A model generated the notes under the pieces. That model was not told where the DNA came from, made no database searches, and saw only the letters and a list, made by a program, of their open reading frames with translations. Positions 41,501 through 42,247 of a stretch of 59,002 nucleotides of DNA are shown here, one piece after another. Source of the stretch: Gemmatimonadota bacterium (GTDB lineage: Bacteria > Orphanbacterota > Orphanbacteria > Orphanbacterales > Orphanbacteraceae); the NCBI GenBank assembly GCA_020061515.1, contig JAGUYC010000313.1:1-59002 (forward strand), in the 5' to 3' direction. Position 1 is the stretch's first letter; every line of letters begins with the position of its first letter. The position numbers were made by a program, and so were the translations under genes.

Positions 41501-42247
41501 CATGCCTATGAGCCCGACTTCATCGTGCGGTTGTCGAACGGCACGATGGTTATGCTCGAGATCAAGGGAAAGGCCGGTAGGATCCACGGCGAGGATGAGG
41601 TCAAGGCGAAGAACGCCGCCGCGCGGAAGTGGGTCGCTGCGGTCAATAACCTCGGCAAGTACGGACGCTGGGCGTTTGAGATCTGCGAGGACCCAACAAA
41701 GCTCCGATCGATCCTAGAGAAGCACGCCGGGGTCCCTCAGCTCGTCAAGATCTTCCGCATCGTGCAGCCGACTCGCGAGACTGCGTGGAAGACATGCGTT
41801 CCGCTCGCCACCCTGCAGGCGGCCGCGGGCAAGTTCAGTGAGGAACAGCTCAGCCTCGATCGCTACGACGAGTGGCACGGCAAGTGGATCACGTGGGATG
41901 ACCCGCCGACGTTCGAGGAAGGCATGTTCGTCGCCAAGGTCCACGGGAAGTCGATGGAGCCGCTCATCCCGTCAGGGGCGCACTGCCTCTTCCGCCCGCC
42001 GCGTGCCGGGACGCGCCAGGGGAAGGTCCTCCTCGTGTGGCACTCCGGAATCACCGATCCCCACACGGGCGGCACCTACACGGTGAAGGTCTACGAGAGC
42101 GAAAGACGCGGCGCCGACGAGGGCGAGTGGGAGCACGTCCGCATCACCCTCAAGCCCAAGAATCCTGACTTCCCCCCGATCGTCCTGGAACCGAAGGACG
42201 AGGGCGAGGTCAGGGTGATCGCCGAATTCGTGCAGGTGGTGGGGTAG
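38597..42247 (+). CDS. res: Type III restriction enzyme Res subunit (SF2 helicase + PD-(D/E)xK nuclease) fused to a C-terminal LexA/UmuD-type S24 peptidase domain
   Basis: Helicase motifs [17 protein letters not shown] and [39 protein letters not shown]. Nuclease motif YEPDFIV...MVMLEIKGK. The last 149 aa (41798-42244) align by eye with the LexA C-terminal domain: [13 protein letters not shown] (cleavage-loop-like), GKSMEP (Ser 41951-41953) and YTVKVY (Lys 42086-42088). Confidence 0.85.
   Translation: [1216 protein letters not shown]

Follow-up and report, generated by a model that had tools for sequence, protein, structure and literature searches.

According to PMC9926225, LexA, lambda cI and UmuD engage the same elements in the groove of the RecA filament in spite of their different architectures. 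LexA-like proteins also carry ClpXP C-degrons that lie buried beside the autocleavage site and are exposed only on cleavage (PMC5742171, citing Neher 2003 and Niu 2010). Proteolysis acts on restriction enzymes as well. In the alleviation of EcoKI, the nuclease-motor subunit HsdR is removed by proteolysis and the methyltransferase is spared; when DNA has been damaged or has recombined, or when the system reaches a naive host, type I alleviation of this kind keeps the host safe (PMC4231737; PMC12707154; PMC11109961). PMC4231737 and PMC12707154 give proteolytic restriction alleviation as known only for type I so far, its lack elsewhere being an explicit open question. Here we describe a type III restriction subunit, Res, encoded on a 59,002-nucleotide (nt) stretch of the Gemmatimonadota contig JAGUYC010000313.1 (the whole stretch is called the window below). 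The last ~165 residues of this protein are very probably a catalytically competent self-cleaving module of the LexA/cI type. Amino acid (aa) numbers refer to the 1216-aa Res protein; feature coordinates are collected in Table 1.

The preliminary description, made by eye, had placed an S24 domain in the last 149 codons plus stop (41798-42247) of the Res open reading frame (ORF) 38597-42247 (+); its frame, coordinates and Ser and Lys codons are correct. It had also proposed a profile search and a structure prediction, and both support the assignment. Pfam PF00717 (Peptidase_S24) matches the tail alone with 39.0 bits (E 7e-10) and the whole protein with 32.9 bits, against a gathering cut-off of 23.3. 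The match extends over aa 1074-1210 and profile positions 5-115 of 116, and the domain is a complete S24 module. An AlphaFold2 model of aa 1044-1216, with 120 homologues as input, has a predicted local distance difference test score (pLDDT) of 86 and a predicted template modelling score (pTM) of 0.83. In Foldseek, the best 20 PDB matches of this model consist solely of C-terminal domains of LexA or lambda cI (probability 1.0; target-normalised template modelling score 0.35-0.67), with the cI-type structures 2ho0 and 1f39 among the best; signal peptidases follow only at E > 0.1. A PDB sequence search with the tail alone gave no match. As profile, fold, Ser/Lys dyad and a predicted Ala-Gly site in cis are all found, the Res tail is a member of Peptidase S24.

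Within the family, the tail was compared with E. coli LexA by hhalign of the profile of Res tails. G-x-S-M-E-P aligns with VSGMSM (Ser119) and Y-T-V-K with VTVK (Lys156); LKPxNPxFxPIV of the family profile pairs with LLPENSEFKPIVV. The alignment stops short of the cleavage site, so the site assignment rests on motif, spacing and co-variation. E. coli LexA reads LPLVGRVAAGEP, against VPLVGRVAAGEP in the preliminary description. The predicted Ala1077-Gly1078 site lies 41 residues ahead of Ser1119 (34 in LexA), and a cut there would give a 1077-aa Res body ending in ...LQAAA-COOH and a 139-aa fragment. The cleavage loop (aa 1074-1084) has a pLDDT below 50 in a two-domain model and a low one in the single-domain model, as would be expected for a LexA-like mobile cleavage-site region. 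A Cys1067/Cys1130 pair was considered as a redox lock on this loop and rejected, since conservation of the second Cys does not depend on the first residue.

The likeness to LexA thus lies in the fold, in the Ser/Lys dyad within G-x-S-M and T-V-K, and in an x-A-A/G site (the slash marks the cut) on a mobile loop at similar spacing. Res-S24 differs from LexA in that it has no winged-helix DNA-binding domain and its cargo is a 1077-aa helicase-nuclease, not a repressor. A profile search of Res gave no LexA_DNA_bind or HTH match, and the upstream 1043 residues are those of a restriction helicase-nuclease. The subfamily is also separate in sequence: it has a PFR-x-V-x-P...TCVPL leader and an H-x-G-x-x-D-P-x-T-G-G insert. 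UmuD is similar in that S24 self-cleavage alters a DNA-handling enzyme complex rather than a repressor. However, UmuD is a small separate protein that works with UmuC and is activated by losing a short N-terminal peptide, whereas in Res-S24 the whole C-terminal domain would come off a large enzyme. The UmuD model NF007621 reaches 14.4 bits (E 0.03) against a cut-off of 110, and no umuC lies nearby.

By its profile match, the remainder of the protein belongs to the BPTD_3080 type III family: aa 185-1043 score 872.5 bits against NF046055 (BPTD_3080 family restriction endonuclease), for which the cut-off is 800. PADLOC REase_III also matches (E 5.6e-10). Walker A (GSGKT, aa 205-209), DEGHH (aa 333-337) and the PD...E-x-K nuclease motif (EPDF, aa 972-975; LEIKG, aa 987-991) are conserved across the set of 121 sequences described below. 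Since the NF046055 model stops at aa 1043, the canonical Res is taken to end at about this residue and the following 173 residues to be an addition. As in EcoP15I and other type III systems, Mod precedes Res, and Res combines an SF2 ATPase with a C-terminal PD-(D/E)xK nuclease; canonical type III systems differ in lacking the 173 extra residues and the linked AddA-like UvrD-PDDEXK gene found in 6/6 loci. The Mod stop codon lies 6 nt ahead of the Res start codon, and Mod is 5' of Res in 6/6 loci examined. Public annotation gives Res-S24 and its relatives only as 'type III restriction enzyme' or 'DEAD/DEAH box helicase'. A model of nuclease plus S24 domain has a pTM of 0.61, compared with 0.83 for S24 alone, with no confident docking between the domains. 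As no fixed docking is predicted and the linker is of low confidence, the models give weak evidence for a tethered module rather than an inhibitory cap.

Conservation of the catalytic unit was followed among Res orthologues. A full-length search found 6556 proteins at E<=1e-10; orthologue counts are from the best 120 of these plus the query, 121 in total. The best 120 are 57-92% identical to the query, are ~1150-1240 aa long and align to its end. All of them have the S24 domain. The preliminary description had named non-conservation of Ser and Lys as grounds for abandoning the idea; both are well conserved. The residue at the position of Ser1119 is Ser in 98 tails, Ala in 20 and Asn in two; at Lys1164 it is Lys in 95, Arg in 24, and Val or Gly in two. 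AAG, Ser and Lys occur together in 78/121.

The exceptions lose all three elements together. None of the 22 proteins with Ser replaced by Ala or Asn keeps the Lys (Arg in 20) or the Ala-Gly bond (VVR, LLR, IAR etc. in its place). A few forms look intermediate (AAG/Ser/Arg, MAN/Ser/Arg). A neighbour-joining tree of the Res body puts the catalytically dead forms in many separate places, and the nearest S24 domain is an active one for the dead forms P0020, P0022, P0031, P0036, P0113 and P0116; on this evidence the catalytic unit has been lost at least five independent times. Pairs of active forms share 62% identity in the Res body and 61% in the S24 domain; pairs of dead forms share 64% and 36%, respectively. 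Selection on the S24 domain is, on these comparisons, mostly selection on self-cleavage, with site, nucleophile and base acting as one unit. Walker A and DEGHH are intact in 22/22 dead forms, and PD...EIK in nearly all. Because the Res motifs stay under selection in these lineages, cleavage would be an accessory control that is dispensable for the core function of Res, not an obligatory maturation step. The dead S24 domains are those of P0020-P0025, P0031, P0036, P0041, P0043, P0049, P0068, P0073, P0081, P0087 and P0088, and further those of P0091, P0093, P0102, P0106, P0112, P0113 and P0116.

The module is not restricted to Res. A tail profile from 29 sequences was searched against 1.84 billion representative proteins (clusters at 50% identity) and matched 2357 clusters at E<=1e-3, of which 1496 reach E<=1e-10 and 400 reach E<=1e-30; the size of the subfamily is put at about 400-1500 clusters. 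Architectures were counted in the best 150 of the 2357 matches, the majority of which are not Res. In BLASTP, similarity to Res is limited to aa ~1053-1216 in 149 of these 150 (all but P0030, the representative of Res). In 134/145 representatives with a complete domain, no more than 25 residues lie between the end of the module and the C-terminus; the parts N-terminal to it form at least 23 unrelated groups. AAG, Ser and Lys are intact in 123 of the ~138 representatives that have the cleavage region. The cut-site consensus is C-V-P-L-x-x-L-[KR]-A-A-A/G-x-F, with Ala at P1 in 134 and at P2 in 133; the almost invariable Ala at P2 may be set beside lambda cI, in which the residues before the cut are V-Q-A.

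Pfam partners were counted in 72 non-type-III representatives. They include Type_ISP_C with an Eco57I-type methylase (11/72), SLFN-g3/DUF2075 helicases (10), giant DEAD + MZB/DUF1998 helicases (5), methyltransferase + HNH (4), PLDc_2 (2) and AlwI (1). MmeI-like IIG/IIL enzymes, HsdR parts (HSDR_N + SWI2_SNF2; T1RH-like_C), McrC of McrBC (P0126), LlaJI (P0203) and RE_endonuc (P0209) are also present. An McrB (AAA_5) gene followed by McrC-S24 is found on two independent contigs, and a 1969-aa DEAD+MZB+S24 protein adjoins PLD and SNF2 genes. Judged by these architectures, a distinct S24 subfamily is a portable module that unrelated restriction and defence proteins have acquired by repeated fusion. 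The preliminary description had tied its regulatory logic to type III enzymes; the fusion is indeed found there, but the module also stands at the C-termini of type I, IIG/IIL, ISP-like and type IV enzymes. HTH repressors make up only 4/72. As in cI, a few subfamily members are HTH_3/HTH_31 + S24 proteins (P0204, P0261), and the module probably originated from HTH + S24 repressors.

Some members of the subfamily depart from the common arrangement. P0165, P0167 and P0174 have an extra tail of ~200 aa past the S24 domain, in which a small helical unit occurs twice (approximate consensus R-D-x-A-I-R-E-L-A-x-x-L-G-[FY]-x-R-T-G-x-x-[IV]); the tail would leave together with the S24 fragment. The idea that the module is confined to nuclease-bearing chains was dropped, as P0167 is apparently a methyltransferase with a target recognition domain and S24 but no nuclease or helicase. 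On the Halomonas sp. PA16-9 megaplasmid NZ_CP040452 (locus L004, 6992-9462), a DUF2075/SLFN-g3 helicase and an S24 domain are encoded in different frames by ORFs that share 70 nt. A fusion gene with a frameshift, an error in the sequence and a genuinely split version are all conceivable. PIN_8, AbiEi/AbiEii and NACHT NTPase genes are neighbours of this locus. Taxonomic range was taken from source names only and includes Eisenbacteria, Geobacter sp. OR-1, Lindowbacteria, Thermoanaerobaculia and Halomonas. The sole weak match of a contig scan, in Candidatus Geothrix skivensis (locus L001), is a 164-aa ORF with no Pfam match beside prolyl oligopeptidases and is irrelevant here.

The coupling of Res-S24 to DNA damage that the preliminary description had suggested is plausible. 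The favoured explanation is a self-cleavage switch that responds to activated RecA (RecA*) and turns Res off, a form of restriction alleviation encoded in cis; we see an even chance that it is right. The mobile cleavage loop would enter the Ser/Lys site, and the Res chain would cut itself between Ala1077 and Gly1078. The trigger would probably be filaments of RecA on single-stranded DNA (ssDNA), as for LexA, cI and UmuD, arising from the cell's own damaged or restricted chromosome; entry of the island into an unmethylated host and recombinational repair are example settings. The cut would remove the 139-aa module and leave a Res body ending in ...L-Q-A-A-A-COOH. The Res nuclease subunit would then be degraded or otherwise disabled; Mod would persist and could re-methylate the genome.

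The separate parts of this explanation differ in strength. That the cut switches the enzyme off and not on, a direction left open in the preliminary description, is an evenly balanced judgement with three grounds: lineages with dead S24 domains keep a working-looking Res, which is awkward if the uncleaved form is inactive; a C-terminal module leaves a new, degron-like carboxyl end (L-[KRQ]-A-A-A-COOH) on the large cargo; and R-M systems need alleviation, while this one rides on a mobile island. RecA* as the trigger could equally go either way. Exposure of an -AA degron as the means of switching Res off is tentative, and we lean somewhat against it. The predicted AAA-COOH end of Res resembles both the ssrA tag (LALAA in this organism) and the VAA-COOH end of LexA(1-84), a latent ClpX degron (PMC5742171). 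The wider proposal that the subfamily is a portable, RecA*-responsive 'DNA-damage fuse' exposing an -AA-COOH degron on at least ten unrelated restriction and defence families is possible but rather doubtful. This proposal would cover types I, IIG/IIL, ISP-like, III and IV (McrC, LlaJI) as well as PLD, HNH, DUF2075 and DEAD-DUF1998 proteins.

Several points weigh against an off switch of this kind. We infer everything in it beyond the competent S24 module, namely cleavage, RecA dependence and degradation. IrvR is described in PMC7101444 as an S24 protein that cleaves without RecA. The AAA-COOH end has no more than a resemblance to the E. coli ClpX C-motif, and the host protease may differ in specificity. 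Degradation of single-chain MmeI-like or ISP-like enzymes would also remove modification, which makes a pure degron less tidy, and P0167 seems to be a partner without a nuclease. Dead S24 domains persist without truncation, and Gln1084 and Asp1154 are invariant in all 121 sequences; because of this, the module may have a second role that is independent of catalysis.

In a rather unlikely alternative, the module is an on switch: S24 would hold the nuclease inactive and self-cleavage would free the active enzyme, set off by RecA* from phage replication or by slow spontaneous cleavage that serves as a timer until Mod has methylated a new host. The conversion of UmuD to UmuD' is established as activation by S24 self-cleavage, partners without an evident methyltransferase (SLFN-g3/DUF2075, PLD, DEAD+MZB) might need a trigger, and a mobile island would gain from a delay while establishing. 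The fast evolution of dead domains also fits an inhibitory surface that decays after loss of catalysis, a further point against the off switch. However, at least five lineages have lost Ser, Lys and site and still keep a full-length Res with intact ATPase and nuclease motifs; under an on switch the first loss would lock Res off and Res should decay. The models predict no confident packing of S24 on the nuclease (pTM 0.61), and methylation already lets R-M enzymes separate self from non-self. Much the same losses bear on a mainly structural role, in which S24 would be a dimerisation or partner-binding domain, perhaps pairing two Res subunits, with cleavage rare or irrelevant. LexA and cI C-terminal domains are established dimerisation domains, the PDB matches are dimeric repressors, and the 22 dead orthologues keep the whole domain with the two invariant residues (121/121). 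Against this, dyad and site are conserved across unrelated partners (123 of ~138), they are lost only together, and domain identity then falls from 61% to 36%; from these three observations, most constraint on the domain comes from catalysis. Most relatives in the partner families also do without such a domain (the NF046055 model ends at aa 1043). A mainly structural role is therefore quite unlikely, but given the invariant Gln1084 and Asp1154 the domain may have a structural role of secondary weight.

Cleavage of another protein, such as a phage anti-restriction protein, Mod or a toxin-antitoxin component, is very unlikely. UmuD is known to cleave in trans within a dimer and the related S26 signal peptidases to cut other proteins; the fold search gives weak signal-peptidase matches, and a Gp49/HTH toxin-antitoxin pair lies directly downstream of Res. 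Yet a LexA-type Ala-Gly site is present in cis, 41 residues before Ser (34 in LexA), and vanishes exactly with the dyad; neighbours differ between loci except for UvrD-PDDEXK and Mod, and the partner systems differ entirely. An artefact (mis-assembly, read-through of two genes or a decaying repressor remnant) could be suspected in a metagenome-assembled genome, and the Halomonas helicase and S24 domain do lie in two overlapping frames. It is refuted by the occurrence of the identical protein on three independent contigs, by 120 clusters from many samples with the same architecture and length, and by active S24 domains evolving at the rate of the Res body.

Table 1. Features of the Res-S24 gene and its neighbourhood in the window
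Feature	Position (nt)	Strand	Basis or remark
1425-aa ORF, N-terminal LmuA/DUF4297 match (Cap4-like nuclease)	27354-31631	-	PADLOC E 8.6e-13; weak AAA_22 P-loop
UvrD-helicase + PD-(D/E)XK nuclease (AddA-like)	31792..34626	+	Pfam UvrD-helicase, UvrD_C, PDDEXK_1; start codon uncertain
AbiJ_NTD4 protein between UvrD-PDDEXK and Mod	34520-35509	+	PADLOC candidate PDC-S32, E 4e-100
Mod subunit (1000 aa, N6/N4 methyltransferase)	35588..38590	+	Pfam N6_N4_Mtase E 2.5e-29; PADLOC MTase_III E 1e-157
Res-S24 fusion gene (1216 aa)	38597..42247	+	one ORF without interruption; NF046055 and PF00717 matches
Res body, aa 185-1043	39149..41725	+	NCBIfam NF046055, model positions 142-969 of 970
Linker between nuclease domain and S24 module, aa 1044-1052	41726..41752	+	low pLDDT at model start
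S24 module, aa 1053-1216	41753..42244	+	limits set by subfamily; conserved PFR-x-V-x-P ... T-C-V-P-L start
AAG loop, Ala1076-Ala1077-Gly1078	41822-41830	+	sequence motif
Predicted scissile bond Ala1077/Gly1078 in L-Q-A-A-A/G-K-F	41825..41830	+	motif, spacing, co-variation with Ser/Lys
Ser1119, predicted nucleophile (G-K-S-M-E-P)	41951..41953	+	aligns with LexA Ser119; Ser in 98/121 orthologues
Lys1164, predicted general base (Y-T-V-K-V-Y)	42086..42088	+	aligns with LexA Lys156; Lys in 95/121 orthologues
Gp49/HigB-like toxin (129 aa) + HTH_3 antitoxin (147 aa), then 152-aa ORF (weak PD-T4-9_C)	42547-43818	+	directly 3' of Res
Tyrosine integrase	46819-48177	+	

The Res-S24 gene lies in an island of ~23.4 kb bounded by 29-nt direct repeats (24602-24630 and 48045-48073; 27/29 identical). 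A transfer-messenger RNA gene (48045-48403, -), whose tag is ANDNLALAA, has the second repeat as its 3' end. With its integrase and the whole defence cluster, this is a typical ssrA-targeting genomic island. An orthologue of the UvrD-PDDEXK protein (~920 aa) lies directly 5' of Mod-Res in 6/6 loci, two of them with a dead S24 domain; outside the window these are L007 2129-4900, L008 786-3545, L009 2094-4868, L010 2078-4840 and L011 1466-4231. On this basis UvrD-PDDEXK, Mod and Res appear to form a conserved three-gene cassette. PADLOC labels the first gene only as GajB-like or DRT-helicase-like. That this AddA-like helicase-nuclease resects restriction breaks into RecA-loading ssDNA is speculation. 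One small variable gene sometimes stands between UvrD-PDDEXK and Mod-Res: the AbiJ_NTD4 slot of the window holds a PLDc_2 gene in L008 and an unannotated 236-aa gene in L011, and is empty in L007, L009 and L010.

Other genes in the neighbourhood are less constant. Large flanking genes (1425 aa in the window, 1492 aa in L008) were considered as a fourth component of the cassette and rejected, as they are not homologous. The 1425-aa ORF may be a large stand-alone defence NTPase-nuclease; the remainder past its LmuA/DUF4297 and AAA_22 regions gave no match. An AAA_25 protein is also among the island cargo. Outside the island, a 38-nt element with the palindrome TTTGTTCGG-N4-CCGAACA(T/A)A occurs in three copies (6755-6792, 16543-16580 and 23243-23280), each upstream of an ORF; it may be a shared operator site.

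Two described systems resemble the proposed switch in outcome. EcoKI alleviation likewise removes the nuclease-motor subunit and spares the methyltransferase. However, it depends on recognition in trans, by ClpX, of a long-lived translocation state, and HsdR has no protease domain; in Res-S24 both sensor and cut would be built in. CapH/CapP and similar damage-responsive regulators of defence operons, as presented in PMC13228613, also couple an ssDNA or DNA-damage signal to proteolysis that alters immune activity. There the metallopeptidase CapP cuts a separate repressor and control is transcriptional, whereas the S24 serine autoprotease of Res is fused to the effector and would act post-translationally. 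A fusion of S24 to restriction or defence enzymes was not found described in the searchable full-text literature, in which subscription journals are thinly covered. The literature covered included a 2025 review of R-M biology, an McrBC census, the Millman 2022 preprint on defence systems, BREX and phosphorothioate analyses and comparative genomics from the Aravind group. The components are known; the combination of an R-M enzyme with a LexA-type autoproteolytic module is the new part.

Restriction enzymes endanger their host when sites are left unmethylated after repair, recombination or transfer of the R-M system to a new cell. ClpXP-dependent alleviation, known from type I, is the one protection against this that is well understood. 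If the proposed switch is real, the module would be a built-in safety valve that ties immunity post-translationally to a DNA-damage signal beyond type I. It would also represent a general, cis-encoded mechanism of restriction alleviation and protection from autoimmunity outside type I systems, and a possible answer to why alleviation has seemed confined to them. Being compact, the module could be transplanted to serve as a degron or cleavage tag inducible by damage, and its presence could flag defence enzymes in metagenome annotation.

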